In this document: positions 1 through 21,930 of the stretch, in pieces
Position numbering within the stretch: position 1 is the first letter of the stretch
Layout: the number at the start of each line of letters is the position of its first letter
NCBI GenBank assembly: GCA_031405995.1
Contig: JANOGJ010000260.1
Location: 1-33,649 of the forward strand
Direction of reading: 5' to 3'
DNA from: Acidobacteriota bacterium
GTDB lineage: Bacteria > Acidobacteriota > Vicinamibacteria > Vicinamibacterales > SCN-69-37
DNA length: 33,649 nucleotides
Notes under the pieces: generated by a model
What the model was told of the DNA's origin: nothing
Database searches by the model: none
Seen by the model: the letters and a program-made list of their open reading frames with translations, nothing else
Translations under genes and position numbers: made by a program

Positions 1-3000
1 GCGACGTGAGAGCCGTGCCAGTGTACGTCTTGAGGAACTGCGCCGACTGCGACTCGCCGCCGTAGACCTCCACCTGAGACGGCAGCGGTCCATTGCACCC
101 CGCACTTGCACCCGTACAGCAATCATAGGGATTGTCCACACCAGCGCACGACGCTGAATCGTTTGGGTTGTCCAGCATGATGTCGATGCCGCGGTTGACG
201 AACATGCACCCCTCAAAGCGCAGATATCCGCCCTTGGCAACGATCCCGACGCGGGCGTCTTGGTCAGCGTCGATCGAAGTGCCGATACTGAAAAAATGCG
301 AGTTTTGAAACGTGACGTTGTAGCTGTTCCATCCGCGGATGCGGAAGTGGCTCCCGGCCGTGATCTGCGACACGTCGCCAGCATCACTGCCGTTGAGGTC
401 GACTCCATTCGCGTTCGATGCTCGGCCCGATGGTCGATCGAACATGCACTGATTGAAGAGCGCCTGCGAGTAGTCCTCGTCGTAGGTAGGATCATCGCCA
501 CCGAAGTCGACACACACGCCGCGACATGCGAGGAAAGCGCTCCTGTCGAATCGCATGTTCCAACCCGACGCGGGCTGGCCGTCGACTGGCGCGGTGTCCG
601 TGCTCTGAACGCGCAGGACAGTTGCGGCAGAGAAGTCGCCGTCGAACGCGACGTTCTCGACGGTGATGCCGTCGGGGTTGATGATCGTGAACATCGTCCC
701 AGCGTCGGCGCCGTCCCAGATGAACGTCGGATACCCCGTGCCGGGACGGTACCCGCCCGTCTCGCCGCGCATGTTGAAGAATCGCCGCGTGACCGACACC
801 GCCGTCTGAATCTTGAACGTGCCACCGTGGAAGGTGAGGAACGTACCAGGCAGGACGTTGTTCAGGGCTGTCGTGATCGCCGGGCCGCAGTCGGCCGTCG
901 TGTTGGGGAAACAGCCCCACCATTGAATCGGGGCCTCAGAAATGCCAGCCGGGCCGTAGAGAACATCGGAGACCTGGGTCGGCCCAATGGCGACGGTGCC
1001 AGCACCTCCGAATATCTGGTAGGCGTCGGCGTCGATCGGTCCCTGAATGCGGATGGTGACGCCGCCGTCGGGTTTGAGAACGGCACCGGGCTCAAGACGG
1101 ATCGTGACGTTATATGGGATCGTGATGTTCGTGCTGATCTTGTAGCCGTTGGTCGATGACGGGAACTGGACCACGCCGCCAGATGTTGCCGCCGCCGTCA
1201 GCGTGGCATTGATTGCGGTGTAGTCGTTGGTCGACCCGTCGCCTACAGCGCCGTACCCCTTGACGTTGAACGTGCCGTTGAGGATTTTCGTCGTCACTGC
1301 TCCAGTCGCTGTGTTCGCGGTGAAGCCGGGCGAGACGCTAAACGACGCGCCGGAGTTGACCTGCACGTCATGGTCGACGCCAGCCGCGCTTCCACCGCCT
1401 CCGCCCGATCCTCCGTCTCCAATCGCCTGCCACGCCGACCCACTCCATCTACAGAATGACTTCGCCGTCCCGCCACCGGTGCATGACCCAGCCGAAGAGT
1501 CGTCCGTGACGATGTAGGTATCGCCCGTCGCGGGGCTGCCAGGGCGCGAGACATACGCCCCGCTCGGATAGCCGATAGCGGTGCCAGCCGTGATCTTGCC
1601 GGCCGCGGTGTAGTTTCCGCTGCCAAGCCACTCGTGCTGCGTGACTCCGCCTACGACGATCTTGTCGATGGAGGTCGTATAGGACGGTGGGAAGTGGCGC
1701 TGGTAGGTCCGCGCACCGCTGACGGCCTTCGCCAGCGAGTAGTTGCGGAACGTGCCAGCATCGTTCTGGAACTCGACCAGCGTGTCGTCGGATGACGAGT
1801 TGCGCTCCATGTGGTCAATCTCGATCTCTCTGATGTTCACCGAATCGCCGGCCGCGGTCACGCGGATGCCGTACATCGTCTGCGCTACTGGAAGCCTGCC
1901 GAACTCGGCGTTTCTTATCGTAGCGTGCCACAGCGCAGTTGTCGCACCGGGGACAGAGTGCGGGCCGTCGATTCGCACCATCTCGGTACAGCTCGACAGC
2001 GCGGTGTCGATCGTCAACATGAATAGGCCGTCGGACAGCACCCCAGTGCCGCACTGCTCGACCATGAAGTTGTCGAACTTAACGAGCCGATTGCTGCCGG
2101 TGAAGCTGAACCCAACGCCGCCGTGGAACACGACTTCGGACGCTGCGTGCTGGAACCGCGTCGGCGCTGACACGGTGATGGACCCAGACGCCACTGACGA
2201 AACCTTCGCAAGTTCGGCCGTATTCCCGATACCCAAGAGGACCATGTCGTCGGCTGCGAACGACGAGGACGACACGACGGACAGGACCGTCTGCCCTGCG
2301 GCTTCAAGGGCCGATAACGTCGTCTTGTCGTACTGGTTAGCGTGCGCGCCGTCGGAGATGATCGTCTGGTACTTCATGTTGGTGAACAGGAGATTGTGGA
2401 TGCCGACAGTCGAAGCGCGCGTAATGAAACACAGATCGCTCTGGCAGATGTTCGAGTCGAAGTGGAGCGTGTCGAGTTCTTCAGTGACCGTTGTGTCGTC
2501 GAGTTCGCCAAGGTACACGCGGCGGCCGTAGACGATATTGTTTCGGACGGACCCGGCCCCGTAGGTGTTGTCGAGTTCGAGCAAGTATCCGGTGTACGAG
2601 TTGTAAGTCGTTCCGCCGGACCCCGGGTAAAGCGGGCCGCCGTAGAGCGCCAGGTCGTGGATGTTCGGATGCTGCACGCGCTCGAATTCGATGATCCCGT
2701 GCGTGTACCCGAGGTCCTGGTCAAGCGCGAATGTCATTCCGCTGACTTCGGCACCGTAATGGCCCTGAGTTGCGCCGATCGCTGGGCCGATCTTCAGCAC
2801 CGGGGTAACGCGCGGATAGATGTAGACGCATCCGCCGGCCTCACCCTGCACACTCCACCGGCCCGCCCTGTCGGTTCCACTGTTAGCCTGAATCTGTTTC
2901 GTCGTGTTCCAAGCGTAGTGCCCGCATGGGAACTTGACGTTCGCCGGGCCAGAGTCAAATACGGTCTCGAACCCGGTCCAAGGATCGGCTGCGGTTCCGA

Positions 3001-3496
3001 CGCCGCCGGTCCTGTAGGCGTTGGCCTGCCGCTCGTTGTTGATGATTTTTGTCGTGACCGCGCCAGTCGTTGCATCCGCGGTGAACTCCGGGGCGTTGTC
3101 CAGCACTCCAGCGTTGTTGATCTGTACGTCACTGGTTGACCCGGCGACGGCCGCGCCGCCTCCGGTCATATTCGCCCAGTTCCCAGACCCGTCAGCACCG
3201 TAGATCGTGGCGGCGTTCGTCGTCTTGCAGATCGCCGTAGCCGTAGGCGCGGCTCCAGTCGGCGGATTCGCTGGACACGCAGGCAGGTCGGCCCTGACGT
3301 ACTTGCTCGTACCGGCATCGCACCGGAACACGGCCCCGGTCGAGTCGATTACGAGTTGTCCTGCCGGCGAGGTCGTCGGGAAGCACGCGGTAGTCCCTGG
3401 GACGACTGCGGTTGAGATGTACATCGCTGGAGCCGTGGCAGCGGCAGCCGCTCCACCGAGAACGAGTGCGAAGACGATGGCGAGTAGGCGACGCAT
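1..3496 (-). CDS. Partial (C-terminus lies beyond the left edge) >1165-aa beta-helix tailspike / polysaccharide-depolymerase-like protein. It has a signal-peptide-like N-terminus and two fibre modules joined by a Gly linker.
   Basis: Hand translation of the minus frame. ATG at 3496 follows the TAG of the 3508-4227 gene, with GGAG 7 nt upstream. I found no in-frame stop down to nt 2. All minus ORFs listed in 1-3500 are in the other two frames, so the track most likely omits this one because it lacks a stop. N-terminus is MRRLLAIVFALVLGGAAAAATAPA. Second module starts FNVKGYGAVGDGSTNDYTAINATL, a pectate-lyase-3-type beta-helix start. Confidence 0.75.
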   Translation of the reverse strand, partial: MRRLLAIVFALVLGGAAAAATAPAMYISTAVVPGTTACFPTTSPAGQLVIDSTGAVFRCDAGTSKYVRADLPACPANPPTGAAPTATAICKTTNAATIYGADGSGNWANMTGGGAAVAGSTSDVQINNAGVLDNAPEFTADATTGAVTTKIINNERQANAYRTGGVGTAADPWTGFETVFDSGPANVKFPCGHYAWNTTKQIQANSGTDRAGRWSVQGEAGGCVYIYPRVTPVLKIGPAIGATQGHYGAEVSGMTFALDQDLGYTHGIIEFERVQHPNIHDLALYGGPLYPGSGGTTYNSYTGYLLELDNTYGAGSVRNNIVYGRRVYLGELDDTTVTEELDTLHFDSNICQSDLCFITRASTVGIHNLLFTNMKYQTIISDGAHANQYDKTTLSALEAAGQTVLSVVSSSSFAADDMVLLGIGNTAELAKVSSVASGSITVSAPTRFQHAASEVVFHGGVGFSFTGSNRLVKFDNFMVEQCGTGVLSDGLFMLTIDTALSSCTEMVRIDGPHSVPGATTALWHATIRNAEFGRLPVAQTMYGIRVTAAGDSVNIREIEIDHMERNSSSDDTLVEFQNDAGTFRNYSLAKAVSGARTYQRHFPPSYTTSIDKIVVGGVTQHEWLGSGNYTAAGKITAGTAIGYPSGAYVSRPGSPATGDTYIVTDDSSAGSCTGGGTAKSFCRWSGSAWQAIGDGGSGGGGGSAAGVDHDVQVNSGASFSVSPGFTANTATGAVTTKILNGTFNVKGYGAVGDGSTNDYTAINATLTAAATSGGVVQFPSSTNGYKISTNITIPYNVTIRLEPGAVLKPDGGVTIRIQGPIDADAYQIFGGAGTVAIGPTQVSDVLYGPAGISEAPIQWWGCFPNTTADCGPAITTALNNVLPGTFLTFHGGTFKIQTAVSVTRRFFNMRGETGGYRPGTGYPTFIWDGADAGTMFTIINPDGITVENVAFDGDFSAATVLRVQSTDTAPVDGQPASGWNMRFDRSAFLACRGVCVDFGGDDPTYDEDYSQALFNQCMFDRPSGRASNANGVDLNGSDAGDVSQITAGSHFRIRGWNSYNVTFQNSHFFSIGTSIDADQDARVGIVAKGGYLRFEGCMFVNRGIDIMLDNPNDSASCAGVDNPYDCCTGASAGCNGPLPSQVEVYGGESQSAQFLKTYTGTALTS

Positions 3497-3507
3497 CACA
3501 AAGCTCC

Positions 3508-4227
3508 CTATGCCGAGGCTGCGGCGATGACAGTCCACTCGTAGGTGGCGCCGTCAGATTGGCGTACACAACACTTCAAGATGTCTGGGAGACCAGCGTC
3601 TCTCACGCGGTAGACGAGGCCGTCGTAGACCACGGACGGTGACGGTAGCGACGCCGCTGTAACAGTTGCCAACACGAACGATGACCCGCCGCCAACGGCC
3701 CCGCCGACCGCCGTGTCGACGTAGAGTTTCGTTGCGGCATCTTGATCTGCAGTTGGGTTGTCGAGGTTCTTGATGCGGTTCGAGAGAGCGTCGTAAGCCC
3801 CGGTCCCGATGATGTCGTTCACTCCGAGCAGCAAAGCCCTGGCGAGCGACGGATCGACGGTCGAGAGCAGGACCTCCATCTGCTGAATCATCATCACGAT
3901 GCGATCGAGTCCAGACTTCTCCAGCGTCTCAGGGAGGTAATTGCCCTGATTCCTCAAGTTGAGTTCCTGGACGACGTCGATGACCCTGGCAAGCAGGTAC
4001 GTGTCGCCAGCGACTGCCGGCGTCACGAGCAAGATCACGGAGCTTGCCTCGCCTATGTCGGCGATCGAGTAGTGTGTGCCGTAGATGAGGAGCGTCGCCG
4101 AGCCCCCCGACGGAGTTCGGTAGACCAGGAGGTCGTCGTTGCGCTGCACCGTGAACGGCACGGGGATCGACGTTGCCCCGGTGGACGTCGCCACTGTGAT
4201 CCGCGCGAGGCTGGAAAGAAGTGTCAT
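3508..4227 (-). CDS. Short tail fibre / fibre adaptor with a T7 gp17 N-terminal-like domain (239 aa)
   Basis: ATG 4227 has GGAGG 5 nt upstream, directly after the TAG of the 1911-aa gene. It sits after the ejection proteins, as gp17 does in T7. Contains NRIKNLDNPTADQDAATKLYVD, the widespread fibre motif (N-L-x-x-P-x-x-x-x-D-A-x-x-K-x-Y-V-D). Confidence 0.72.
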   Translation of the reverse strand: MTLLSSLARITVATSTGATSIPVPFTVQRNDDLLVYRTPSGGSATLLIYGTHYSIADIGEASSVILLVTPAVAGDTYLLARVIDVVQELNLRNQGNYLPETLEKSGLDRIVMMIQQMEVLLSTVDPSLARALLLGVNDIIGTGAYDALSNRIKNLDNPTADQDAATKLYVDTAVGGAVGGGSSFVLATVTAASLPSPSVVYDGLVYRVRDAGLPDILKCCVRQSDGATYEWTVIAAASA

Positions 4228-4229
4228 CG

Positions 4230-7200
4230 CTACCTCCGTCGTTCCTTGTCACGGCGGAAAATGAATTTGAGTGCGTCGCTTGGCTTGCGGAACCTCTCGC
4301 GTCCGGTTGCGAGGTCGCGGATGTAGCCTCCGGTGATCTGAGCCTGCGATACCGGCAGTCCGTAGAGCGTCGCGATCAAGGCCGCGGAGTCCTCAACGGC
4401 CGGTAGAATGTTGCCGCCCTTGAACGCCTTGACGTCGGATTCGATGGCACGAACCGTCGAGAGAGCGAGCGACTCCAAGCCGAAGAGCCGCGGGTCGTTC
4501 TTCTTGGCGAGGGCGCTCGACATCTCCTTCACGAACGGGATCATGCTCGCGTGATAGAGCGCGATCTGCGTCAGCGCCCAGTCCCAAGCCTTCTCTCCGT
4601 CTTTCGGGCCGCGACCGGACAGGATCTCCGACGCTACCGCCATGACGGCCACGCGCCAGAACTCGTTCATAATCGCGTGTTTCGCGGCCTTGGCGTAGCG
4701 CCCTTCGGCGGCCAAGCCCTTCGTTTCCCTTATCAGGCGACGCTGCTGGTTGTAGGCGTTGTTGAACCAGCCCGAGAACATCGAGAAGTACCGGAAGATT
4801 TGGTCATCCTGGAACGCCGCGATGTCCTTCACGCCGCCAGCACCGAAGTTCGTTCGGATCGTCGAGTCGGCGGATCGGACGGCCTGCTCGTGGGTGAGTT
4901 TGGCTGCGAGTTCCATTCGATACTTCGCAAGCCAAGTCGGGTAGTCGATCAGCGCGTTCGTCATGTTCGCCATCGTGTAACCGCTGCGGCGAACGGCTTG
5001 CACCCACGAGTCCCCGGTAACGGCTCGCTCGAACTCTCTCCTGACTTCGTTGTCCCGCGTCGTCATGCGGTAACGCATCTCAGGCGATGAGTTCTTGATG
5101 AACTCCATCGTCTCGGCGTGATTGTTGATGAGATCGACGGCGGCCTTGCCGAACTCCAATTCGCCGACGACCGTGTGAGCGATCGCCAGGTTAGCGAAGT
5201 TCTGCGTCGCGACGGTGCCCTTGTAACCCATCACCGCGGCGGCCATCGCGCTTTGCGCTGCCGCCATGTAGTCCCCGCCGAAAGACGACATCCCGCGCGC
5301 TCCAGCGATGCGGCGTAATCGCTCCAGCATCGCCTGGTAGTACGGGAGCCCAAGACGGTGCTTGATCTCCGCTGCGATCTCCGGCACTGTGATGAACCGC
5401 CATGCGTTGATGATCGCTTCTCGGTGCGTCGTATCGTGAACTACTTGCACGACGTGACCCGGTAGCCTGTTTATGTCTAGGTCTATCGCGAAGTTGGCCC
5501 CGGTGCGTTCGATGAGGTGGCCGTGGGGTGTGATAGCCGCGACGTAGCTTTTCGCATCGAACGGGCCGCCATCGGGGCCTGTCATCTTCTCGGCCAAGAG
5601 GCTTGAAAACTTAGGATGCGCGATGACGGGGTAGTACCCGCCCTCGTAGGTCTTGCTGGTGCCGTCCGCGAATTGCCGCGTGAACGATCGCCGCTCCACC
5701 TTGGGCGGCGCCAGCCCGGTTCGCCTCTTCTCCAGGGCCTCAGCTGCCGGCCAGAGCGCATCGAGGATGTTCCAGAAGTTTTGCACGTAGTCCCAGTGCG
5801 CTTCCGTCAGGTGGGACAGCGCCTCTTCGATCGTGGCGTCCGACCACTTGATGAGGCCGCCCTGCTCGGTCTGATAGCCTCCGAGCAGTTTCGAGTAGTT
5901 CGAGTCGTTCCCGTAGTTCGCCGCGATGCCGAGCAATCCCTTAAACGTAAAGGTCTGGTCGATCGACTTGACGTAGACGCGGCCGGTGTGGAGCAACCGC
6001 ATGTCGGCCTTTGGCATCTGCTCGAACGCGCGGAGCAACTTCGTTGCAGTCTCCATCCCGAGGGTCTTCTCGGCCGCCTGAGCATCTGCGGGCGCATGAA
6101 CCAGGAACTGCGAAAAGATCCCGTTTGGGTCGTTCCCGTCCATCTGGAGTGCGAGTTCTTCGAGGCGCACGGCCCAGGCGTCAAACTTGTTTCGGAACTG
6201 CGCAAATCGTTCGACGGCGCCAGCGGTCGTACTGTCGATGACGGCTCGCCCCGGATCAGGAATGTTCTTCTTGATGCTTTCGAGCGCCTCTTCCTTCACG
6301 GCCTCCGCGGCTCGCTCCTTGCCGACGACGATCAGTTTGTTCTTGATGCTGGCCGTGTACTGAATGCTCTTGACGGCGTTCCTCAGATCGAGGAGATCGT
6401 TGACGCTCAGGTTCTTCCAGTGCTCTTTGAACGACTCGATTCGGAGTTTCTGGGAGACAACTGGGTCGAACGACAGCGCCTCCTGCTCAGTGATCCAGTC
6501 CCCCAGAGCCTGCGTGCGGTCGATCGCCTTCAGCGTTCTATTTCTAAAGTCGAATCGCCCGAGGAGTGCGTCCTGCTGCTCCTGGTAGGTGCCGCCAGCC
6601 AGGCCGAGCTTCGCTCTGGCCGCTGGGCCGCCGCTGTTCCGTAGAAACCTGACCGCCGAGTCCGCTTCTCTCTTGGCCTCGGTCGCTTCCCGAGCGAGCG
6701 CGAAGTTGAGCAGCCGGCGACGCTGCCATTCGACGGCTTCATCGTATTTGCCCTTCCCGGCCGCCTTGATCGCATTCGTCGCGGCAGTCCGCTCGGCGCG
6801 TTGGTAGGACGCCGGATCAAGGTCGCGGACCTTGCCGGCGCGGATGTTCTCGAACGCCGCCGCCTTCAGGTCGGCCGCGGTGAGTCTCACGCGACGATTC
6901 CCGGCCCTGCGGTTGAGCGCGTCGAGTTCCTGGAGAAGCTGCGAGAGGCGGGCCTTGGAGTCCCTTGCCGCCTCCTGGGAGGCCTCTGGCAGCGTCCCGT
7001 CGTTCAAGATGTCGCCGTGCTTCTCGATCATGGCCGCGGCCGTCTGGCGGGTGATGCGGGCGTCAGGGTGGGCCTGGGTGGTCAAGGCCAGGAGTAATTC
7101 GTCGCCGCTTTCGTACCCAAACAGTGGCGCAACGGCGTCGGGATGGATGCCGCCAGTGGCCGTCATCCCGGAGCGGCCGAGCACCTTCCTGGCGGTCTGT

Positions 7201-9965
7201 GAGATGCCTGGATAGTCGGCGTCGATGGCCTTTGACGATAGTTTGAAAGGTTGCCCCTTTTCGTCGGCGAAGACCTGGAGATCGGCGCCCTCCGGCATCT
7301 GCCCTTGCGCGAAGTACCGGAAAGCCTCGACCTGGCGCTCCGAATTGATCTCGGCCGCGACCTGTTCCTGGACCTTGACCCGCTCTTCCTGCCACCACGT
7401 CTCAGTCTCGCGGCGCTTCTCGGCGGCGATCCTGGCACCCAAACCGCGAGCGGCCTCGTCGTGAGCCTGCGCGGCTTTGTTTTGGTATTCGGCGAAGGCG
7501 GCCTCGGACATGCCTGCCTCTGCCGCGCTTTTGAACATCGGGATGTAGGCTTGGGCGTTTTCGACGTTGGCGATGGCGTCGTCAGTGGCGATCATCCGGT
7601 CCATGACACCGCGGACCTCATCGCTCAACTCGACACCCAAACCACCGATCTTGCGGTAGATGGATTTGAGCCATGCCGAGAATCGCGCGAAAGTCCTGAC
7701 TAATTGCAGGGACGGTGCCTTGCCTTCCTGGAGGTACTTCTCGAAGGCACGGGCGAACTTCTCGTGGTGCTCCGGCGTGATCTCTTCCCGAGTTTTCACG
7801 TGGAAATAGCCTAGCAATGTCTCGAAGTCGGCGCGCGTCTGATCGGTCGACTCGCCCCGGTACGCCAGGTCGGCGAACGTCTCCAGGAAGTAGTGCCCGG
7901 TCTCGTGGAGGAACGTCGACCGATCGGCGTTCTTCGTCGAAAGGGTCATCGTGAACCCAGGCCCGCGGCGCTCCGTCAGCCCGATCGCTGCGCCGGCCTT
8001 GTTGAGCAGCGACGGCTCCCCGCCCTCGGTGAAGAACTTGATCGACCCGTTCGCTTCAAGCGAGACGTCGGACTTGATGTCCAGCGGGAAGATCGTGGAC
8101 AGGTCTTCCTCGGTCAGACCGGTGCGCGCCGCCTGCGCCTTGAAGTAGGACTCGTGCAGCTTGGCGTAGTGGTCGGCATCGGTCTCTGGAACCCCGATCG
8201 AGATGAGTTTCGAGAATCTGTCCATGTAGATCGGGCTCATTTTGCGCGCCGCGACGTCCGCTTCGGTCATCTGGAACGGTAGTTCGGTGAGGACCTTCTG
8301 ATGCTCCTGGGCCTCCTTCGGCGTCATCGACTCCTGGTAGAACTTGGCGTCAGGAACCAAGGCCGCGTGGTATTCGGTTGGGGCGATCTCGCTGACGTAC
8401 TTCCCGAACGGAATTGCCACGAATCCGCCGGTTTCCTTGGCGTTGGCGTACTCCTGACCGACTCCGATCTGTTCTGCTGCTGCGGCCGGGTCGATCCCCT
8501 TGGACTGGAAGAGAGTCGTCCATGCGTCGGCCGCCACGAGGACCGATTCGGGGTGCCCGTTGGCCGCCGCGGCGCCGTCGGCGAACTCTGCCATCGCCGC
8601 CGGGTTGGTTTCCGCCAGCCGCACGTTCCTGGCGATTCCGCCGAGCGATTCCAGCCGAGCCTTGGCAGCAAGCCCCTGCCTCATGGATGAGACATCGCTG
8701 TGGAATTGTCCTGCTGGGCCGGGGACGATCAGAAGGGCCAACGAAAGGGCGGCCTCCTTGGCCTCGGTTCCCATCTCGCCGATGATCCCGGCGAAGTTGG
8801 TTTGGCCGCCCTCCGAACCAACTACGGTCTCGCGGCCTAGCGCGGTCACGCCAGCCTGTCCGGTCTCCGTGCCGACTTCCGCGCCGAATGTCGCCATGTA
8901 CTTGACTGCGGCCTGCGCCATCGCCTTTCTCAGCGTCAGACCGCCGAAATCGGCCTTCTTCGAGATGCCTCCAAAGACTGGCTGTAGGAACGGGAAGAGC
9001 GTCATCGCGACCTTGGACCCGGCGACCTCTATGACCGCGTTGGCCGCACCGACGACCGACGCCGCAGCGGCTGCGGTACGGAAGTTCACCGCACCGCCGC
9101 GCTCTTTCATGGCCTCGACGATGTCTCCGTAGGCCGCTCCTGACTCTTGCTGCCATGTGTCGTACCCAACACCCGCCAGGAACCCGGCCGAAGCCGTGGC
9201 CGGGACCAGCGGAGCGGCCTCCGGGCCAGCCGCCATTGTCAGCGCCGCAGCTTCGGCCCCCATGGCAAGCCCACCGCCTACTCCAGACGCCAGTGACCCC
9301 AACGTCTCAAGGGTCCCGGTCGCCATGCGCGCGAACGTGCCGTGGCTCTCCTTGCCGTAGTCCTCCGACATGAACGATTCGAGTTCCGCAATCCTTGGGT
9401 TCTCGGAAGGGTCGGCGCCTGACAGCATGGCTCGCAGCAACAGGTCCGACCGCTCCCTCTGGGCGCCGCCGACACGGATCGCGCGCGACCAAGCCCCCTC
9501 GTCGTAGACCATACGTGGCCGGCCGAACGCCGCGGTCTCACCGCTTGGGTGCATTCGGCCGGTCCACCACTCAAGTCCTTGGAGCGACTTCAGGTCGTCC
9601 CTGGCCTGGGCCATGTTGTCGATCTTGGAGACCCACGACGCCAGAATTGGAGAGTGTGCCATCAGGCTTTCGAGATCGACGTCCTTCTGGGCCGCCACTT
9701 CCTTGACCTGGGCCTGGTTGCGCTCCACGACGTCGCGCGGGAGCCCGGTGCGGTCGGCCATGCGGATCACGTTGGCGTGAGCGGCCGGGTCCTTGGTCGC
9801 GGCGACGCGGGCGGACGTGTCGAGCGCCGACGCCTGCCTGCGCTGGAGCTCCGCAAACACGTCATCCGGCGACGGCTCGACGAGCGGAGCAGCATCCATC
9901 GCAGAGAACACGTCATCCGGCGACGGATCTGTGTCTGGCGCGGCGTTCGGATCGTATCCGCTCAT
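4230..9965 (-). CDS. Giant internal virion / ejection protein (gp16-slot analogue, 1911 aa) with a zincin-like HExxH motif
   Basis: Uninterrupted 5.7-kb ORF. ATG 9965 overlaps the stop of the upstream gene (ATGA). It lies between the gp15-like ORF and the fibre. FLHETGHYFLE is at nt 7893-7907 (residues 687-691). Confidence 0.85.
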   Translation of the reverse strand: MSGYDPNAAPDTDPSPDDVFSAMDAAPLVEPSPDDVFAELQRRQASALDTSARVAATKDPAAHANVIRMADRTGLPRDVVERNQAQVKEVAAQKDVDLESLMAHSPILASWVSKIDNMAQARDDLKSLQGLEWWTGRMHPSGETAAFGRPRMVYDEGAWSRAIRVGGAQRERSDLLLRAMLSGADPSENPRIAELESFMSEDYGKESHGTFARMATGTLETLGSLASGVGGGLAMGAEAAALTMAAGPEAAPLVPATASAGFLAGVGYDTWQQESGAAYGDIVEAMKERGGAVNFRTAAAAASVVGAANAVIEVAGSKVAMTLFPFLQPVFGGISKKADFGGLTLRKAMAQAAVKYMATFGAEVGTETGQAGVTALGRETVVGSEGGQTNFAGIIGEMGTEAKEAALSLALLIVPGPAGQFHSDVSSMRQGLAAKARLESLGGIARNVRLAETNPAAMAEFADGAAAANGHPESVLVAADAWTTLFQSKGIDPAAAAEQIGVGQEYANAKETGGFVAIPFGKYVSEIAPTEYHAALVPDAKFYQESMTPKEAQEHQKVLTELPFQMTEADVAARKMSPIYMDRFSKLISIGVPETDADHYAKLHESYFKAQAARTGLTEEDLSTIFPLDIKSDVSLEANGSIKFFTEGGEPSLLNKAGAAIGLTERRGPGFTMTLSTKNADRSTFLHETGHYFLETFADLAYRGESTDQTRADFETLLGYFHVKTREEITPEHHEKFARAFEKYLQEGKAPSLQLVRTFARFSAWLKSIYRKIGGLGVELSDEVRGVMDRMIATDDAIANVENAQAYIPMFKSAAEAGMSEAAFAEYQNKAAQAHDEAARGLGARIAAEKRRETETWWQEERVKVQEQVAAEINSERQVEAFRYFAQGQMPEGADLQVFADEKGQPFKLSSKAIDADYPGISQTARKVLGRSGMTATGGIHPDAVAPLFGYESGDELLLALTTQAHPDARITRQTAAAMIEKHGDILNDGTLPEASQEAARDSKARLSQLLQELDALNRRAGNRRVRLTAADLKAAAFENIRAGKVRDLDPASYQRAERTAATNAIKAAGKGKYDEAVEWQRRRLLNFALAREATEAKREADSAVRFLRNSGGPAARAKLGLAGGTYQEQQDALLGRFDFRNRTLKAIDRTQALGDWITEQEALSFDPVVSQKLRIESFKEHWKNLSVNDLLDLRNAVKSIQYTASIKNKLIVVGKERAAEAVKEEALESIKKNIPDPGRAVIDSTTAGAVERFAQFRNKFDAWAVRLEELALQMDGNDPNGIFSQFLVHAPADAQAAEKTLGMETATKLLRAFEQMPKADMRLLHTGRVYVKSIDQTFTFKGLLGIAANYGNDSNYSKLLGGYQTEQGGLIKWSDATIEEALSHLTEAHWDYVQNFWNILDALWPAAEALEKRRTGLAPPKVERRSFTRQFADGTSKTYEGGYYPVIAHPKFSSLLAEKMTGPDGGPFDAKSYVAAITPHGHLIERTGANFAIDLDINRLPGHVVQVVHDTTHREAIINAWRFITVPEIAAEIKHRLGLPYYQAMLERLRRIAGARGMSSFGGDYMAAAQSAMAAAVMGYKGTVATQNFANLAIAHTVVGELEFGKAAVDLINNHAETMEFIKNSSPEMRYRMTTRDNEVRREFERAVTGDSWVQAVRRSGYTMANMTNALIDYPTWLAKYRMELAAKLTHEQAVRSADSTIRTNFGAGGVKDIAAFQDDQIFRYFSMFSGWFNNAYNQQRRLIRETKGLAAEGRYAKAAKHAIMNEFWRVAVMAVASEILSGRGPKDGEKAWDWALTQIALYHASMIPFVKEMSSALAKKNDPRLFGLESLALSTVRAIESDVKAFKGGNILPAVEDSAALIATLYGLPVSQAQITGGYIRDLATGRERFRKPSDALKFIFRRDKERRR

Positions 9966-11698
9966 GGCCTCGCCTTCATGTTCTGCTCAACGTCGTAGTA
10001 CTGGCGAATCGACACTGGGTCTGACGGCCTCCCGGCGTTTCTCAGGATGGCTTCGATGCGTGCCGCGTCAGCCGAAGGAATGCCGACAGGGGCCTCGACG
10101 ACTTGTTCTTTGTCGGGGACGAAAGCGTCGCCACGCTTGGCTTCGAACTTTCGAATGTCCGTGTCGACCAGATACCACTTCCCGGTCTTCCGTTCACCTT
10201 CGATCAGGGCCTCGTCGATGATCTTCTGGGCCTCGATGCGGTTTGGTCGCCTACCTTCATGCGCTTGGAACGCATCGACCTCGTTGCGGACATATTTCTC
10301 GAAGCCGCCGACCTTCTCGTCGGACGTGATCTTGTCGCCCTCGTAGAAGAAAGCCGCGTTCTCCCTGATGGCCGTGTCGACCATGCCCTGAGTTGTCTCG
10401 TTATCGAGCGACGGCCCGGCCGGAGTCTTCCCGGCTGCGGACAGACCGCGGGCGAAGTTGTTCAGGTCCTCCACCTCTCGAAGCGCGTACCGCATGTCCT
10501 CGTCGGTGACTTTCCCTCTGAGGACCGTCATCGGGTGATTCTTCGGGTCTCGCTTCCACTCCGGGGACTGCAAAATCCAGTTGCCCCACAATGCCAGGTC
10601 GGAACGCTTCGGGCTGGAAGAGCGGTTCGCGTCCTGCTCCTCGATGTTCTTCATCTGCTGTTCTGTCTCGCCCGAGAACGCACGCATCTGCAAGAGCGTC
10701 TCTCGGGGAACAGCGGACAGCCTGCTGCCGCCGGCCTCGAAGGCTTCCCACGCCTTGTCGAGCACGCCGCGCTCGTAGTCCTTACGCACCTCGTCCCTCT
10801 CGGCGAATCGGACCTTGATCGCCTGGACTGCGTTCTCCTCTTCCTTGCCGGAAAGTGTTGCGCGGGCCGCGTCGATCGCAGCCCTCTGGTCGTTCGGGTT
10901 GTTTTTCAGAATGCCGTCGACCGTAGCCTGCTGTTTGGTCAGGTCGTCGGTCTGCGCGTAGACCTTCGACCAGTGCTCGCGATCCTTGGAGGTGAGTTCG
11001 CCCTCGTGCGCCACGTAGAACTTTAGGAACTCCGAGTGATTCGCGGCACCGTCGAGCGCGCCCAACACAGACGACAGCACGCCGCTGCGCGCTTCCGCTT
11101 GCTGTGCCTGAGTGATCTCGTCGGACCATCCGTTCGCGACAGCACGACTCGCGACGGCCGAATCCGCATCGGCCAAGGCTCCGGAGATCATCTCCGGGTA
11201 TTTGGCCGCCGCGTTCGACGCGTTGGCGATTCTGGCGACGGCCGATTGATCCGCGAGTACCTCAGCCTGTTTCGCCTCGTGGCGCAGCACCGCAGAACGC
11301 GCGTCGGTCGCCATACGCTGCGCGTTCGGAACGAACTTGTCCCGCTGCGAATCGTTCGCGAGCCCAGCCGAAAGCTCCTTGGCCCGTGCTTCGATCGCGG
11401 CATACGCATCGGCAGACGCCCCGATGGCGTCCTTCCCGTTCTTCTGTAGAGCCGCATCCGTAAGGGCCTGCCGCTCGGAGTCGAACGTCGCTAAGTCGGC
11501 GTTGACTCTGACGTAGTCGGCGCGCTCTTGCGCCGCCTGCTGCGCGTTCGACTGGACCGTCAGCGCGGCCCCGGCACGGCCGATGACCTCTGCCGTCTCC
11601 TGACCAAAAGCGTTTGGCGGGACGGACGAGTCCTGATAGCCGGGATCGTAACCACGCGGCTTGACCGTTCGGCCTGCGACGACAGGAATTTGGGGCAC
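9962..11698 (-). CDS. Internal virion protein (gp15-slot analogue, about 578 aa, helical, Ala/Gln-rich)
   Basis: The listed ORF starts at 11851 inside the upstream gene. GTG at 11698-11696 overlaps the upstream TAG by 1 nt (TAGTG) and gives the N-terminus (M)PQIPVVAGRTVKP. By recollection this resembles N-termini of podovirus internal virion proteins. There is no other start codon nearby. Confidence 0.68.
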   Translation of the reverse strand: MPQIPVVAGRTVKPRGYDPGYQDSSVPPNAFGQETAEVIGRAGAALTVQSNAQQAAQERADYVRVNADLATFDSERQALTDAALQKNGKDAIGASADAYAAIEARAKELSAGLANDSQRDKFVPNAQRMATDARSAVLRHEAKQAEVLADQSAVARIANASNAAAKYPEMISGALADADSAVASRAVANGWSDEITQAQQAEARSGVLSSVLGALDGAANHSEFLKFYVAHEGELTSKDREHWSKVYAQTDDLTKQQATVDGILKNNPNDQRAAIDAARATLSGKEEENAVQAIKVRFAERDEVRKDYERGVLDKAWEAFEAGGSRLSAVPRETLLQMRAFSGETEQQMKNIEEQDANRSSSPKRSDLALWGNWILQSPEWKRDPKNHPMTVLRGKVTDEDMRYALREVEDLNNFARGLSAAGKTPAGPSLDNETTQGMVDTAIRENAAFFYEGDKITSDEKVGGFEKYVRNEVDAFQAHEGRRPNRIEAQKIIDEALIEGERKTGKWYLVDTDIRKFEAKRGDAFVPDKEQVVEAPVGIPSADAARIEAILRNAGRPSDPVSIRQYYDVEQNMKARP

Positions 11699-12204
11699 TA
11701 GTTGAACACCCCGCTCTGGAGGCCGGTGCTGTACTGATTCAGCGCCCGAGAGCCCCCGGTCAGGAGTGTCGCGCCGGTATCGTTCCGGGCGGATGACAGC
11801 GTCAATCTCTTCTTGCGCGCGAACTCCTCCGCCTGGCTCTTGTAGCCCCACGCTTCGCGCTGCGCGTTCGAGCGGATGGTCAGTGCGTCGAGCTCACCGA
11901 ACATCGCGGTGTCCGCGGTCACTGAGGCTGGCGATCCTGAGCCTAGTTCAACGCCGGAGGCTGCGAAGGCCGCGCTCTGCTCACCGACGAGCATCCGCGT
12001 CCTGGTTCGCGCTGCGTCTTCCTCGATCTGGCCGCGATGAATCGCGTCGGCCGCAGCGAACGTCGCCTTTTTCTGATTCTCGGTCTCGACAGACGCCTGG
12101 TAGCCTGCGGTCTTCCTCTGCGCGTCAACAGACGCGGCTGTTGATGCCGCCGTCGCCACAAGCCCAGCGATCGCGATGATTTCCCCAACGCCTAGATCGG
12201 CCAT
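11698..12204 (-). CDS. Internal virion protein B (gp14-like, 168 aa)
   Basis: Position and size match (T7 gp14 is 196 aa). Hydrophobic N-terminal segment GEIIAIAGLVATAASTAAS, then an Ala/Gln-rich helical region. Confidence 0.6.
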   Translation of the reverse strand: MADLGVGEIIAIAGLVATAASTAASVDAQRKTAGYQASVETENQKKATFAAADAIHRGQIEEDAARTRTRMLVGEQSAAFAASGVELGSGSPASVTADTAMFGELDALTIRSNAQREAWGYKSQAEEFARKKRLTLSSARNDTGATLLTGGSRALNQYSTGLQSGVFN

Positions 12205-12653
12205 TCTGGCCCCCTTGACTTGTCGATGGTCAACAGCCGGTCAGAAGCCTCGGACGGTGCGACCACGAAGCCGAGCCGTTCTGCGAAGCGCACGCTCGCC
12301 GGGAACTCTTTGTCCACTGTCCCGAAGAGGCGCGGGTACGTCATCAACATCTCGTCGATGACGCGGCGCGCGACCGTTAACGTCAGCTTTGGCTTTTCGG
12401 AGATCCGCTCGGACACGTAAAGCCACGGGTAAGCTACGTCATCGTCGATCTCTGCCGCTCCCCACATCGCCATCAGTTCGTTGTCGACGCGACCCGACCA
12501 CGCCAGTTTCGAGCGCGAAAGAGCGCGCGTGATGGACTCGTAGTCGGTGCCTTCGCCGAGAGCCACGATCGACCCCTTGACGAGCGGGTGGAGTAGCCGC
12601 GCCATCAGACCGGCGTCCTCTGTCGTCGCTGGCGAGATGACAAGGTCAACCAC
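12192..12653 (-). CDS. gp13-slot internal virion protein A-like, possible GNAT-like fold (153 aa)
   Basis: Lies between the nozzle and the gp14-like genes, as T7 gp13 (138 aa) does. GTG 12653 overlaps the nozzle stop. The C-terminal FAERLGFV resembles the acetyltransferase-fold beta4-alpha3 region. The start is uncertain. Confidence 0.55.
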   Translation of the reverse strand: MVDLVISPATTEDAGLMARLLHPLVKGSIVALGEGTDYESITRALSRSKLAWSGRVDNELMAMWGAAEIDDDVAYPWLYVSERISEKPKLTLTVARRVIDEMLMTYPRLFGTVDKEFPASVRFAERLGFVVAPSEASDRLLTIDKSRGPEWPI

Positions 12654-15600
12654 CGAACGTCACCTCCGGCGTGATCGACGTGATCTCGCACGGGAGCGGG
12701 TCTCGCTGTTCGATCGTTACGCGACCGCTCGTTCCCCAGCCCCCAGAGATCGTCACGTAATCGCGCTGCGTTGCAAGCGGCATGGCGGCGCCAGCGTTCA
12801 CCGCGCCGTCTGCGACCTTACGCTGCTTCCACTCGCGCATCCTTCCGTCCTCGCCAATCCACAGTCCACGAGATGCCACGACCTCGAACCACACACGGCC
12901 GAGGATCTTCTTCACGGTCTGCATGGACCGGCCATCGAAGTTGATGTCGAGAGTTTCGAGCGTTGACGTGTACGGGAGACCGATGGTGACGACGCTGCCT
13001 GCGTGCGGGAGCGTCACATTGCCGGAGCCGTCGACTGTCAGATCGGTGACGACGCCACCGTCGACTACAGCCGAGACTTCCCGGCCTACACCGAGATGAG
13101 GGAATGAGAATACTGATAGCGCATGGGTCCAAACGGTCAACGGACCTCGCGCGCCGGGTGGGACGTCTCTCTGGAATCTGATGGTGACAGACGTGCCGGA
13201 CGTGACGACAAGGATCGTGGCGCGGTATTCGTTGCCGGCGGCGTCAGACCACACGATCTGCGATCCGACGTGCGACGCGACGAAGTAATCGAGGCCAGTG
13301 ATGCCTGCGACAGTGTCGACTCCAGCGAGCCAACCGTTATCAAAGATACTGAATACGACTCCCGCCGCAGCGAAGTCTGGAGAGCGATACGTCAGGGAGC
13401 AATCGAGGAACACGCCGTAGTTGGGCGTGTTGCTGATGCTGCGTGACGCGAACCTCTCGATGAACCTCTTGGGAGAACCATCCACCGTGCGCCTGACGAC
13501 GACGTACACGGCGGTCTCGTCACCCTCTGGGATGCACGCGACGGACTCGTAGAAGCCGTCGGTGTCGTGCTGGTGCCAGGCGATGACCTCGTGTGAAGGC
13601 AGATACGTCATGCCGAGCAGCACGCCGTCGTCGCGTACCATCCAGATCACGGAGTCCGGTCCCTTGGCGTAGGCCCAGTCGATGATCGTGTGGCCTTCGA
13701 GCAGATGCTTCGCGAGGACCGACCTCTCGTCTTCTGCCGTGTACCCGTCCTGCTGGAAGTCGAAACGGAACTCCCGGATGGCAGGGCCTTCGAGTTGGGA
13801 AAACAGCACTCGCCCGCCGACTGGGAGCGGTGCGATGGACCCCGACCCGTAGTGCGCGTGGGCCTTCGCGTCGATGGATGCCGGGCCGATCGGTGCGCCC
13901 CTGGAACCTTGGATCGCGTACTCCGACGATCCCGTGAACCCCATGAGGACGCGGGCGTGGACGAGGCCCAAGATCCGGTCGACCGTCAGAGCGCCAAGCG
14001 TGTACTCGAATGCATCGTCATCTCCAGCCGGAGACGAGGCAACGAAGTCTCTATAGTTCCCAGCGCGCGACCCGAAAAACGTGTCCGGCTTGTTGTCGGT
14101 CCCGGCCAAGATCAAACGCTGATCGTAGAACGCAGCGACTGACGGGCGATCGCCTTCGGTGTCGAACGAAATCGGCGGCGGGCCTGGAGCTTGAAACGGC
14201 GCCTTGAACAGCGGCTGCTGAGAGTAGTTGGGAGCGTTCCCCGTGTCTGCGAATGACAAGCCCGACATCGTGCCTATCAGGCCGAGCTGGGTTTTGGTGA
14301 CTCCGCGGTACACGCGGTATCCGGTCGCTCCGGTCACGCCAACGTGAAGCCTGACGTTAACGGGGGTGGCGGCGGATGGCGACCGCGCCACACCGTCAAA
14401 TCGCGGCACTGAGCCGAACGACTCTTGGACTCCGTCAACAGCGGAGATGGAGTACCAGTTCGAGTTTTGGACGAACGGCGCCCCGCCTTGGGATAAAAAT
14501 GGCTGGCCCGGCGTGCCGAGCGTTGGGTCCGGTGTCGCCGTATAAGCGGGGTCTGGGATCGGGACCACAGTGTAGTCCGGCACTTGAGCGTCGTCGTAGA
14601 ACACAAGCCCGTCGATCGAGCCGATGTACCCGTACACTCCGTAGTTCCGGCCGCGGTAGATGTTGTACCCCGAAGCCCCCGCGACCGCTGTTGGGATCGT
14701 CACCGTGGCGGGCTTGATCGTTGAGACGTTTATCGAGATGTTTTTCGGGATCGAACCGAACGATTCAGACCCTGTGGCCGCGTCGATCGCGGTCACGACG
14801 TACCACCACGACTTCAGAGGGTTGTTGACGTCTCCGGCGAGATCGCCAGTGATCGTCGGCGCTACTGGAGCCGGGAATTGCGGGCCGTTGATGAGATCAG
14901 ACAGCGCCCACGACTGCTCTGCGTAGCGTTTCAATTCGGCTGGGTTGTGAGCCCGATGAGGTATGAACAGAACGTCCGCGGACTGCGCCGTGCGACCCTT
15001 GATCTCCCGCACCTCGTTTTCGAGGTAGGTCGTTTCAATCTCCATCGGTCCAGGCGACACGAAGTCGCTCACCTCGAAGCGCAGATCAACGCCGACGATC
15101 TCCGTCCAGACTCCGCCGAGGTTGGTGAAGGCTGCTCCGGTTGGATGCTGGTCACCCGTGGTGCAAGAGATGAACACATGCCCGAGTCCAGAGCTGCTGT
15201 CTGACTGCACGACGATGTGAAGCGGCGTCCCGACGGGGATGATTGGAAGCGGCGCGGTCGGATCGACCAACGAGAACGTCTTCATAACTGGCTGCGGTAG
15301 CAGTTGCGACGCTGACACACTCGTAAAATCCAGAAACCCGAGATTCGTGAGCGGCGCGTCAGGCAAACCCGCGGCGTCCGAATACACGGCGACTCTTACG
15401 GTCGGGCTGCTGACAAAGAGTTTCCCGAGGCGCACGCGGATCTCGCGGATCGAAAACGGCACGGTGCTCGACGAGACGAATCTCTGAGCGCGCGACAGCC
15501 CAGCGGCCGTCGTCAACGCCTGAGATCCAGCCGGGGAAGCGACATCGTGCGACGCGATAATCGGCGTGTCTGATCTTGGAACCTGCGCTCCGTTCCTGAC

Positions 15601-15864
15601 GAAGCGCACGTACTCTCCGCCGAACTCCAGGATGTACGACTCATTCGAATTGAACACGAACGGCACGAGCATGGCTGGTCCTGAGTCCTTCGTCTCGACG
15701 CAGACTTCTGTGCCCGATCGGTTCTTGACGCCGCCTTGCGGGATGACGACGAAGTTCCGACACGTCTTCAACCACGATCGGTAGGCTTCGAGATCGACGC
15801 GCCCATGAACGGATGTAGAGACCTCTCCTCCGACGAATGCGCTCTTTCGGAACGGTGAGGCCAA
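12646..15864 (-). CDS. Tail tubular protein B / nozzle (gp12-like, 1072 aa) with inserted domains
   Basis: N-terminus SAFVGGEVSTSVHGRVDLEAYRSWLKTCRNFVVIPQGGVKNRSGTE matches the conserved start of gp12-type nozzle proteins. It directly follows the gp11-like gene. The only start that keeps this N-terminus is TTG 15864, adjacent to the upstream TAG. Confidence 0.85.
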   Translation of the reverse strand: MASPFRKSAFVGGEVSTSVHGRVDLEAYRSWLKTCRNFVVIPQGGVKNRSGTEVCVETKDSGPAMLVPFVFNSNESYILEFGGEYVRFVRNGAQVPRSDTPIIASHDVASPAGSQALTTAAGLSRAQRFVSSSTVPFSIREIRVRLGKLFVSSPTVRVAVYSDAAGLPDAPLTNLGFLDFTSVSASQLLPQPVMKTFSLVDPTAPLPIIPVGTPLHIVVQSDSSSGLGHVFISCTTGDQHPTGAAFTNLGGVWTEIVGVDLRFEVSDFVSPGPMEIETTYLENEVREIKGRTAQSADVLFIPHRAHNPAELKRYAEQSWALSDLINGPQFPAPVAPTITGDLAGDVNNPLKSWWYVVTAIDAATGSESFGSIPKNISINVSTIKPATVTIPTAVAGASGYNIYRGRNYGVYGYIGSIDGLVFYDDAQVPDYTVVPIPDPAYTATPDPTLGTPGQPFLSQGGAPFVQNSNWYSISAVDGVQESFGSVPRFDGVARSPSAATPVNVRLHVGVTGATGYRVYRGVTKTQLGLIGTMSGLSFADTGNAPNYSQQPLFKAPFQAPGPPPISFDTEGDRPSVAAFYDQRLILAGTDNKPDTFFGSRAGNYRDFVASSPAGDDDAFEYTLGALTVDRILGLVHARVLMGFTGSSEYAIQGSRGAPIGPASIDAKAHAHYGSGSIAPLPVGGRVLFSQLEGPAIREFRFDFQQDGYTAEDERSVLAKHLLEGHTIIDWAYAKGPDSVIWMVRDDGVLLGMTYLPSHEVIAWHQHDTDGFYESVACIPEGDETAVYVVVRRTVDGSPKRFIERFASRSISNTPNYGVFLDCSLTYRSPDFAAAGVVFSIFDNGWLAGVDTVAGITGLDYFVASHVGSQIVWSDAAGNEYRATILVVTSGTSVTIRFQRDVPPGARGPLTVWTHALSVFSFPHLGVGREVSAVVDGGVVTDLTVDGSGNVTLPHAGSVVTIGLPYTSTLETLDINFDGRSMQTVKKILGRVWFEVVASRGLWIGEDGRMREWKQRKVADGAVNAGAAMPLATQRDYVTISGGWGTSGRVTIEQRDPLPCEITSITPEVTFGG

Positions 15865-16470
15865 CTACTTGACCCGCGACGTGAAGAAGTCGGAGTCGGG
15901 CTGGCCGTCGTTCGTGTTCTCGTTGTATGCGGCCGCCGCAGCGCGACCCACGAGTTGCTCCGCGATTTCGAGGCATTGCGTGATGACCGACTCGCCACGA
16001 TCGAGCGGGCGAGCGATCTCGGCGGCCAACTGCCACGAGAGCGCCCGCACGAATGGCGGCGGGTACAGCACGACATTCTTGGCGCGCATCGTGTAGATGA
16101 GCGTCGCCGGATTCAGGTCCATCAAGATCACGCGCTTCTGCCCGGTGCCGTCGTTTTCGATCTGGTACTTCGTCATCGCGTCGAACGATCGAACGCGGAG
16201 ATTGTCGGCCACAGCGCGAACGCGGATGCAGTCCGACGGGAGTAGGTACTGGTATCCCCACTCAGGCGGCGGGGTGCCCTCTTCAGCCAACAGTTGCCGC
16301 TTTCTGGCGAACGGCCAGTCGGCCATCGACAGGACGAGATCCCGCGTGTCGTCGTAATGGATGCGGCAGGCTTGCGCCTCTTCGGAGCCCTCGTCGAGCG
16401 ACTCGATGAACTTCAGGGAACGGATGTGCGAGAGCGCGAGGTTCGCAATTTGCACTTGGTCTGCGGCCAT
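15865..16470 (-). CDS. Tail tubular protein A / adaptor (gp11-like, 201 aa)
   Basis: ATG 16470 is preceded by GGGGG. N-terminus QIANLALSHIRS..I.SLDEGSEEAQACRIHYDDTRDLVLSMADWPFA is typical of gp11-type adaptors. Size matches T7 gp11 (196 aa). Confidence 0.8.
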   Translation of the reverse strand: MAADQVQIANLALSHIRSLKFIESLDEGSEEAQACRIHYDDTRDLVLSMADWPFARKRQLLAEEGTPPPEWGYQYLLPSDCIRVRAVADNLRVRSFDAMTKYQIENDGTGQKRVILMDLNPATLIYTMRAKNVVLYPPPFVRALSWQLAAEIARPLDRGESVITQCLEIAEQLVGRAAAAAYNENTNDGQPDSDFFTSRVK

Positions 16471-16518
16471 CGTGCCCCCAAAGATGGGCCGGGAGCCTGT
16501 GCCCCCGGCCCGGATGAA

Positions 16519-16749: not shown

Positions 16750-16751
16750 GG

Positions 16752-17234: not shown

Positions 17235-17244
17235 CTGTCCTCCT

Positions 17245-21902: not shown

Positions 21903-21930
21903 GTCGCTAGTGTAACAGGTGTATGCGGTG

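Follow-up and report, generated by a model that had tools for sequence, protein, structure and literature searches.

A giant tail-fibre gene with a predicted Sec-type signal peptide beside a body-less adaptor in an uncultured podovirus

Textbook tailed-phage morphogenesis is entirely cytoplasmic. Why, then, should a tail-fibre gene begin with what looks like a secretion signal? The question is raised by the left end of a 33,649-nucleotide (nt) stretch of DNA filed under an Acidobacteriota bacterium (GenBank assembly GCA_031405995.1, contig JANOGJ010000260.1, positions 1 to 33,649), which we call the window. The source of the gene is an uncultured epsilon15/T7-like podovirus. On the minus strand, a giant open reading frame (ORF) starts just past the gene of a 239-amino-acid (aa) adaptor protein; an earlier account made from the letters alone (the sequence-only reading) had rightly placed a tail-fibre or tailspike gene there and had given it a Sec-type signal peptide. 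We tentatively favour, at a confidence just short of an even balance, a Sec-exported and probably disulfide-bonded receptor-binding fibre that would join the virion via the adaptor at lysis, and we infer both the export and the virion membership from comparison of genes. Such comparison suggests that an uncultured phage group builds its host-recognition apparatus outside the cytoplasm, which is undescribed for tailed phages.

We first establish what the gene is. Translation of the minus strand from ATG 3496 to position 2 gave 1,165 sense codons and zero stops, so the frame is open to the window edge, as had been claimed. The ORF list does not show it, since frames that cross the edge get no entry; the plus-strand ORFs that were listed instead (260-1159, 1743-2531 and 2342-3139) are antisense to the fibre frame, and nothing supports any of them, in keeping with their earlier description as shadows. 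The window matches a public contig, Logan SRR20217207_14755 (43.5 kb), at 100% identity across all 14,227 overlapping nt, and that contig also encodes the 239-aa adaptor. On this contig the fibre frame stops after 2,863 codons (beyond the left window edge the gene is read from L003 10732-19323 = L036 10001-18592). The window (2-3496, minus strand) therefore holds the first 1,165 codons, or 41%, of an 8.6-kb gene that takes up 20% of the 43.5-kb genome, and the earlier '>1165 aa' becomes a true size of 2,863 aa. Along this chain follow a signal (aa 1 to ~20), an N-terminal domain (N-domain, to ~120), junction 1, module 1, cap 1, a linker, junction 2, module 2, cap 2, and a shaft with a tip. Neither megablast of window positions 1-8000 nor tblastn of the 1,165-aa product found a match among 50,697 phage records, so the fibre gene is in no cultured relative there.

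The start codon is well placed. A Shine-Dalgarno sequence, GGGAG (3504-3508, minus strand), precedes ATG 3496-3494 by a 7-nt spacer and shares a base with the last position of the adaptor stop codon (TAG, 3510-3508), past which the fibre ORF starts 11 nt on. Given this Shine-Dalgarno placement, ATG 3496 is a credible start, and the overlap makes shared transcription and translational coupling of the adaptor and fibre genes probable. A GTG found 42 nt upstream is an alternative start. An internal start at Met25 (ATG 3424-3422) was rejected: it has no Shine-Dalgarno sequence and is conserved in no homologue, which makes a dual cytoplasmic and exported product unlikely. Met25 adjoins the predicted cleavage region, and a start there would give almost exactly the mature protein.

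The N-terminus that follows, MRRLLAIVFALVLGGAAAAATAPAMY, is present exactly as the sequence-only reading gave it. Residues 1-20 (3437-3496, minus strand) comprise an n-region MRR, an h-region LLAIVFALVLGG and a c-region AAAAA; there is no lipobox Cys after the h-region, the residues there being AAA/APA. Signals were called with our own heuristic (basic start, hydrophobic core) plus comparison, and the small-x-small site was assigned by inspection. All ten aligned homologues, only 31-59% identical, have two basic residues, a hydrophobic core of 10-16 residues and a small-x-small site (ALA|D, ALA|A, AFA|V, ATA|I and others). The core sequence differs among them while the physico-chemical pattern is kept, which is evolution of the kind seen in signal peptides and not in docking helices. 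Across 23 proteins of the module that follows the adaptor, exactly two basic residues precede the core in 21 (one and three residues in the other two), and median Kyte-Doolittle hydropathy falls from 2.82 over 10 residues to 1.76 over 19, indicating a core too short for a typical membrane anchor; the window fibre has the longest core of the set (2.31 over 19 residues). The same heuristic was positive for none of 33 other gene calls in the window and for none of the upstream virion genes in any lineage. Judged by this comparison, the fibre N-terminus behaves as a real Sec-type signal peptide and not as a chance hydrophobic stretch.

Cleavage is likely at AAA(18-20)|TAPA, since an invariant Pro23 sits 2-4 residues past the small-x-small site of each homologue, and could reach aa 24 (nt 3425); the previously proposed APA|MY site is thus probably four residues off. 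Export by Tat was considered and set aside. Arginines occupy residues 2-3 in just 13 of the 23 module proteins (the other ten have RT, RK, KR or KK), the core is strongly hydrophobic, and aa 1-700 match no NCBIfam family of any kind; the unconserved RR and the lack of an NCBIfam match make Sec likelier than Tat.

The signal is a property of a gene module rather than of one protein. Eight other, independently sampled lineages each combine a gp16-like protein or fragment (on contigs long enough to include it), an adaptor and a fibre with the same N-domain, and usually more signal-bearing proteins. The adaptor lies directly upstream of a signal-bearing fibre in 9/9 lineages; put differently, the first gene after the adaptor always carries the signal, and 24 module genes bear one in all. 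Unrelated neighbour proteins of 231-1,159 aa are headed by the same element. Past the left edge, in the window's own phage, the giant ORF is succeeded by three genes (253, 231 and 341 aa) with overlaps of 4 nt (L036 18589-21064). They begin with classic signals (VKRLVALFVILAASIASA|Q, MRRTIAVCLLLVSLMGAS and MRRLLVFLFLVAAFGSVRA|EE, respectively), carry 6-8 Cys each and had no match in Pfam, PHROG or NCBIfam. The adaptors of these lineages, at 239-312 aa, are signal-less. Signal-bearing genes also appear to go with a short adaptor: relatives with a long fused tailspike, including Ab31 and DC33, have none directly downstream, and a distant lineage (L009/L021, a Syntrophaceae metagenome-assembled genome (MAG) and an IMG/VR contig) pairs a short adaptor of 188 aa with several such genes, being the one sampled distant lineage with a short adaptor and called downstream genes.

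The position of the gene suggests a link to the virion. By Pfam and PHROG assignments the operon runs from large terminase (TerL) through portal, scaffold, major capsid protein (MCP), tubA, tubB and gp14/15/16 to adaptor and fibre, and the 1,911-aa gp16-like protein marks the end of the cytoplasmic virion genes. The adaptor (3508-4227, minus strand) matches phrog_1640 over aa 16-172 (E 1.7e-31) and PF03906 weakly. It consists of the N-terminal particle-binding domain of T7 gp17 and the epsilon15 tailspike plus a short C-terminal piece, with neither a signal peptide nor a receptor-binding body, and by tblastn it matched only the N-termini (aa ~1-170) of the long tailspikes or fibres of SPN1S, phiV10 and Ab31. 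By homology, then, the 239-aa protein is an anchor without a body, i.e. an adaptor. A search of the giant ORF for the T7 gp17-type particle-binding domain (PF03906/phrog_1640) found none; with the anchor domain on a separate adaptor, the fibre itself is not of the T7 gp17 type. No other fibre candidate was found in the structural operon of this phage or in the 8.5 kb downstream.

What would attach to the adaptor is the N-domain, aa 21-120 of the mature fibre (3137-3436, minus strand), which was delimited by profile search matches, alignment and AlphaFold. A homology search with the whole fragment returned one match only, and a two-sequence N-domain profile recovered only the P0001 lineage; it was a hidden Markov model search with the N-domain that opened up the family. 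When 1.84 billion representative proteins were screened with a profile of the first 177 aa, 40 matched at E <= 0.001, with P0001 and P0003-P0018 as the N-domain matches. Those covering the N-domain proper always do so at the extreme N-terminus, in proteins of 393-2,863 aa. The first 173 aa of the fibre are 59% identical to P0001 and the remainder is unrelated. AlphaFold models the N-domain as small and beta-rich, with six strands and a predicted local distance difference test (pLDDT) score mostly of 64-86 (ten-residue blocks, aa 21-110), and Cys38, Cys59, Cys74 and Cys90 are invariant or near-invariant. The family matched no PHROG or Pfam model. A conserved N-domain on exchanged bodies is the signature of virion-attached receptor-binding proteins, and at the level of genes only, the three marks of that class are present: a conserved N-terminal attachment part, an exchangeable distal body and a position in the tail operon. 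We propose that the N-domain docks on the adaptor.

The cysteines add a further thread. The fibre has 45 (1.6%), of which 40 lie within 25 residues of another, far above the random expectation of 24.5 +/- 3.8 (P < 5e-5). Of 10 homologues, 7 have a third Cys pair in the N-domain and 3 lack it, none keeping a single Cys, and this all-or-none pattern is that expected of a disulfide. Partner proteins reach 4-5% Cys; one of 826 aa has 43, with a weak match to the Cys-rich repeat DUF4215 (E 0.0022, below the Pfam cut-off). The gp14-, gp15- and gp16-like proteins (2,861 aa in total; window 4230-12653, minus strand) and the scaffold have zero Cys, as against 1.6-5% in the module predicted to be exported.

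These observations can be arranged into a tentative pathway. The fibre and its partners would be made with cleavable Sec signals and exported unfolded to the periplasm, where the signal would be cut near AAA|TAPA and the chains would fold and oligomerise, probably with disulfide bonds. Capsid, tail and adaptor would assemble in the cytoplasm as usual. Holin and endolysin would then merge the two compartments, and the N-domain would dock on the adaptor at that point, or afterwards in the lysate, completing the virion. Holin lesions are large enough for folded complexes to pass, and completion in vitro is possible for T4 and T7 particles that lack fibres; it is hence physically plausible that a fibre attaches late. 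Lysis genes are present in related lineages, and in the window's phage they were read by eye only, with no family matches. Generalised to a tailed-phage clade with two-compartment assembly, in which the giant fibre and one or more partners (three here) would be Sec-exported, oxidised in the periplasm and attached at lysis, the proposal is one that we hold less firmly than that for the fibre alone, as a serious possibility. More speculatively, the exported enzymes may also act on nascent surface polysaccharide of the infected cell, and the advantages might include disulfide-stabilised fibres, polysaccharide-active enzymes kept from the cytoplasm and destruction of the receptor on the dying cell.

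Several points weigh against an exported virion fibre. We know of no tailed phage that assembles a virion protein from the periplasm, and we found no report of a Sec-exported tail fibre or a periplasm-assembled virion protein for tailed phages in the open-access literature, an absence that is itself no proof. Signal-less candidates lie nearby in three lineages (a 360-aa protein with a Collar domain in L038, and proteins of 560 aa in L001 and 788 aa in L005), so the exported proteins need not be the sole fibres. The idea that the adaptor C-terminus resembles the cap motif of the fibre was dropped, as BLAST gave no alignment. The signal-less homologues of module 2 (P0041-43) keep a WWGCFPNTTxDCGP Cys pair and a similar Cys content, and phage virions can form disulfides without export, as reported for Milano (PMC10811340). 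Cys richness as a proof of export is weakened by these equally Cys-rich homologues; with them and Milano in view, the cysteines support oxidative folding without proving it.

Of the explanations offered by the sequence-only reading, which did not include an exported virion fibre, an exported enzyme that never joins the virion survives as a live rival. We regard it as unlikely, and as the best of the alternatives. On this view the proteins, adhesin-like and active on polysaccharide, would work in the periplasm or be secreted; the nascent receptor might be stripped or modified by them (superinfection exclusion, lysogenic conversion), or capsule and biofilm loosened for egress, and the virion would bind its host by the adaptor stub or another fibre, a part for which the signal-less proteins of L038, L001 and L005 are candidates. 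The signal-peptide evidence fits this account equally. An O-acetyltransferase adjoins the Ab31 fibre, one signal-bearing partner matches a PHROG filed as moron or polysaccharide deacetylase, and temperate epsilon15/P22-like phages commonly carry surface-modifying genes beside the tailspike gene. It explains less well why a conserved N-domain sits on swapped bodies, the signature of receptor-binding proteins, why the gene lies 11 nt past the adaptor within the structural operon, and why no other fibre was seen in the window's phage. An 8.6-kb gene, 20% of the genome, with a shaft and tip is costly for an accessory enzyme, and the adaptor would have nothing to adapt. Should it nonetheless be right, an exported fibre-like protein of 2,863 aa, encoded by a fifth of a podovirus genome, would add a new kind of accessory function to those of phages.

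Less probable again is that the protein is not exported at all and joins the virion in the cytoplasm, its N-terminus serving there as an assembly element, for instance a helix that forms a bundle with the adaptor or promotes trimer formation. By default one would expect as much of a tailed phage, AlphaFold places a helix at aa 2-18, and Cys pairs also occur in signal-less homologues. Such an element should conserve its sequence or co-vary with its partner, however, and only charge, hydrophobicity and the small-x-small site are kept; the same element stands on unrelated neighbours of 231-1,159 aa; and most members have a core of insufficient length to form a stable bundle or a membrane helix. 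An exposed hydrophobic N-terminus of 10-15 residues after two basic ones would, moreover, be recognised by Sec anyway. The earlier suggestion of a helix docking onto the adaptor is the least likely of the three then offered, because the segment varies like signal peptides and heads unrelated neighbours.

We give slightly less weight still to an uncleaved signal anchor or a tether like the signal-arrest-release (SAR) domains of phage endolysins, which would hold a periplasmic fibre on the inner membrane until holin depolarisation released it, timing attachment to lysis. The uncharged stretch of the window fibre is long and Gly/Ala-rich (LLAIVFALVLGGAAAAATAPA; Kyte-Doolittle 2.3 over 19 residues), as endolysin SAR domains are, its tail GGAAAAATAPA is SAR-like, and a 1,159-aa partner in L038 has an anchor-like N-terminus. 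Most homologues have 14-16 uncharged residues ending in AxA and then Asp, which is typical of cleaved signals and too short to anchor or to serve as a SAR domain. An artefact (a wrong start, a chimeric assembly or a chance hydrophobic N-terminus, given the abundance of Ala, Leu, Val, Arg and Gly in high-GC ORFs and the GTG 42 nt upstream) is hardly credible when ATG 3496 has a good Shine-Dalgarno sequence, independent samples show the N-terminal peptide to be conserved from its first residue, and the synteny recurs in nine lineages from different runs with 0/33 control genes similar.

What kind of protein does the signal precede? Beyond the N-domain the chain contains internal repeats, which we found by fragment-versus-whole BLAST (all coordinates minus strand). 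The junction motif that the sequence-only reading had seen twice was recovered as aa 123-171 (2984-3130; core VQINNAG...FTADATTGAVTTKIIN) and aa 710-758 (1223-1369), the latter running into the start of module 2, with 43% identity over 49 aa (E 9e-8). Its 'end of fibre' motif also proved real and recurring: this cap (GDTYIVTDDSSAGSCTGGGTAKSFCRWSGSAWQAIG, aa 638-693, 1418-1585) closes module 1 and is repeated past the window edge at aa 1243-1299 (51% identity, E 1e-14; the same alignment by hhalign), with the consensus GDxYIVTDDS..C..C.W.G.AW. The halves are joined, as described, by the Gly-rich linker GDGGSGGGGGSAAG (aa 692-705, 1382-1423). A further repeat relates aa 1548-1602 to aa 2220-2274, and after module 2 and cap 2 come ~1,560 aa of Thr/Gly/Ala-rich shaft and C-terminal tip; calling the protein 'two-module' fits the window fragment only, the full chain having more than two.

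Module 2 (aa 738-1165 in the window, 2-1285, and on to ~1243) opens as the pectate-lyase-3-like domain that had been recognised, with PF12708 at aa 743-827 (31.3 bits against a cut-off of 27, E 2e-7). It matches tailspike PHROGs 7458, 2234 and 12123, and its homologues P0041-43 (48-54% identical) are tailspike-like. The AlphaFold model has a predicted TM-score (pTM) of 0.63 and pLDDT 64, and its top Foldseek matches are all beta-helix proteins (PfbA, GH87, alginate epimerase, Sf6 tailspike, phi29 gp12 and K2 tailspike; probability ~1.0), at TM-scores of only 0.15-0.36 because the model is mediocre. Sequence searches of the PDB found nothing beyond the PfbA-like start of module 2. On Pfam, AlphaFold and Foldseek together, module 2 is a pectate-lyase-type right-handed beta-helix. 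The claim of two beta-helix modules thus holds for one of them. Module 1 (aa ~172-637, 1586-2983) is an orphan domain with no homologue among 5.8 billion clusters and no match in Pfam, PHROG or NCBIfam; its AlphaFold pLDDT is below 50, Foldseek gave no significant match, and hhalign of module 1 against module 2 aligned only the cap motif. Counting beta-helix rung motifs by regular expression was dropped, as it failed to discriminate even module 2.

How does this arrangement compare with known receptor-binding systems? The split systems of T7-like podoviruses, the SP6/K1-5 gp37 adaptor with exchangeable tailspikes and the anchor-plus-branching receptor-binding proteins (RBPs) of KP32 type, likewise have a short gp17-type particle-binding protein and then separate, exchangeable tailspikes with a conserved N-terminal docking part. 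In those systems, to our knowledge, every component is cytoplasmic and lacks a signal peptide, whereas here the docking partner and all its neighbours carry predicted Sec-type signals and are Cys-rich. Epsilon15, phiV10, SPN1S, Pseudomonas phage Ab31 and DC33, the closest cultured relatives when capsid and anchor domain are compared, share the virion gene order, ~50% capsid identity and an anchor domain 31-39% identical, but have one signal-less anchor-body fusion of 780-1,070 aa with few Cys. By Pfam and model, module 2 shares the PF12708 beta-helix with the tailspikes of Sf6 and P22, phi29 gp12 and the Klebsiella K2 tailspike; unlike in pectate-lyase-fold tailspikes, that helix is internal to a 2,863-aa chain, between repeated junction and cap motifs.

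Export of phage proteins has precedents of other kinds. SAR endolysins (P1 Lyz, phiKMV gp45), the spanins Rz/Rz1 and T4 Spackle are Sec-exported before lysis without being virion parts; they too are phage-encoded, have an N-terminal signal or signal-anchor and act in the periplasm near lysis, as predicted here, but they are small, and the present proteins are fibre-like and of 231-2,863 aa. The filamentous phage proteins pIII and pVIII are virion proteins with Sec signals, and the disulfides of pIII form in the periplasm; inoviruses, however, are extruded through the envelope without lysis, whereas a cytoplasmic tailed-type capsid and tail are found here, along with lysis genes that in the window's phage are putative. 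That multi-thousand-residue beta-helix proteins can pass Sec is known from FhaB-type two-partner secretion (TPS) proteins and autotransporters, adhesins that resemble the fibre in having an N-terminal signal and a repetitive beta-rich body. Searches of the 2,863 aa with Pfam and NCBIfam found no TPS domain and no beta-barrel, and the gene stands in a phage structural operon.

What appears to be new is the predicted switch of a tail-fibre module to Sec export, conserved in no fewer than nine uncultured lineages. If the exported fibre does join the virion, completion of the particle could be deferred to lysis, tail fibres could use the host's periplasmic disulfide machinery, and the phage would come to depend on host factors such as SecA/SecYEG, signal peptidase and DsbA; anyone engineering such fibres would have to express them in the periplasm. 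Annotation pipelines and RBP or depolymerase finders may discard signal-bearing proteins as 'not structural'.

The remaining virion genes of the window lie on the minus strand in the order given above: large terminase (21931-23259; phrog_2, E 2.9e-42), portal (19215-20897), a scaffold/protease-like protein (18276-18911), major capsid (17245-18252), tail tubular A (15865-16470), tail tubular B (12646-15864), two gp14-like internal proteins (12192-12653 and 11698-12204), a gp15-like protein (9962-11851) and the gp16-like giant internal virion protein with its LPD22 domain (4230-9965; PF18834, E 1.8e-15, and phrog_9880, E 1e-274). The longest ORF there, on the plus strand (21919-23283), is a shadow of the large terminase. 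Window positions ~29900-33649 are found in the Logan assembly on a separate 2.5-kb contig, SRR20217207_372040 (L035), off the 43.5-kb contig; the window is therefore a different, longer assembly of the same phage. The capsid is ~50% identical to those of Limnohabitans phage DC33 (51%) and the epsilon15/phiV10 group. DC33 (L041, GenBank PQ492659.1) is the nearest cultured relative by capsid and has a 39-kb genome with podovirus-type structural genes; the taxonomy line of its record reads Inoviridae, which looks like a mis-assignment.

Adaptor searches in genomes returned only anchors ~35% identical, in MAGs (Rhodospirillales, Syntrophaceae, Desulfovibrio and others), and gave no host assignment. 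Among the adaptor C-termini that we read (window 3508-3600, minus strand, L001, L006, L042, L043 and L005), a motif, (K/L/M)x C x (R/E)Q(S/A)..G..(Y/F).W, keeps one Cys in 5 of 6, not in L005, in proteins that are otherwise Cys-poor; an intermolecular role for this Cys is possible. In three or more lineages, the last gene of the module predicted to be exported encodes a small protein of 122-156 aa (L036 21061-21429, L038 15208-15579, L039 17374-17844). Its N-terminus is hydrophobic and lipobox-like (MIAALILAAVC, VIALLAIAC and MIALALALLISPGC), and the L036 and L038 versions share the motif YRV(F/Y)A..P.D(A/S)SW.W. Among the lysis-like genes of L036 (23142-23783) is a 213-aa protein with a predicted signal peptide, VKAVALAVLLVLATGASA|DD, and 13 Cys, for which only weak Zn-ribbon and Bowman-Birk-like matches were found. 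In L039, a signal-bearing 533-aa partner (15776-17377) has a C-terminus like K1-lyase_C and polysaccharide deacetylases, and the gp16-like giant protein (1075-9261) reaches 2,728 aa, with ART-PolyVal and RadC-like matches.

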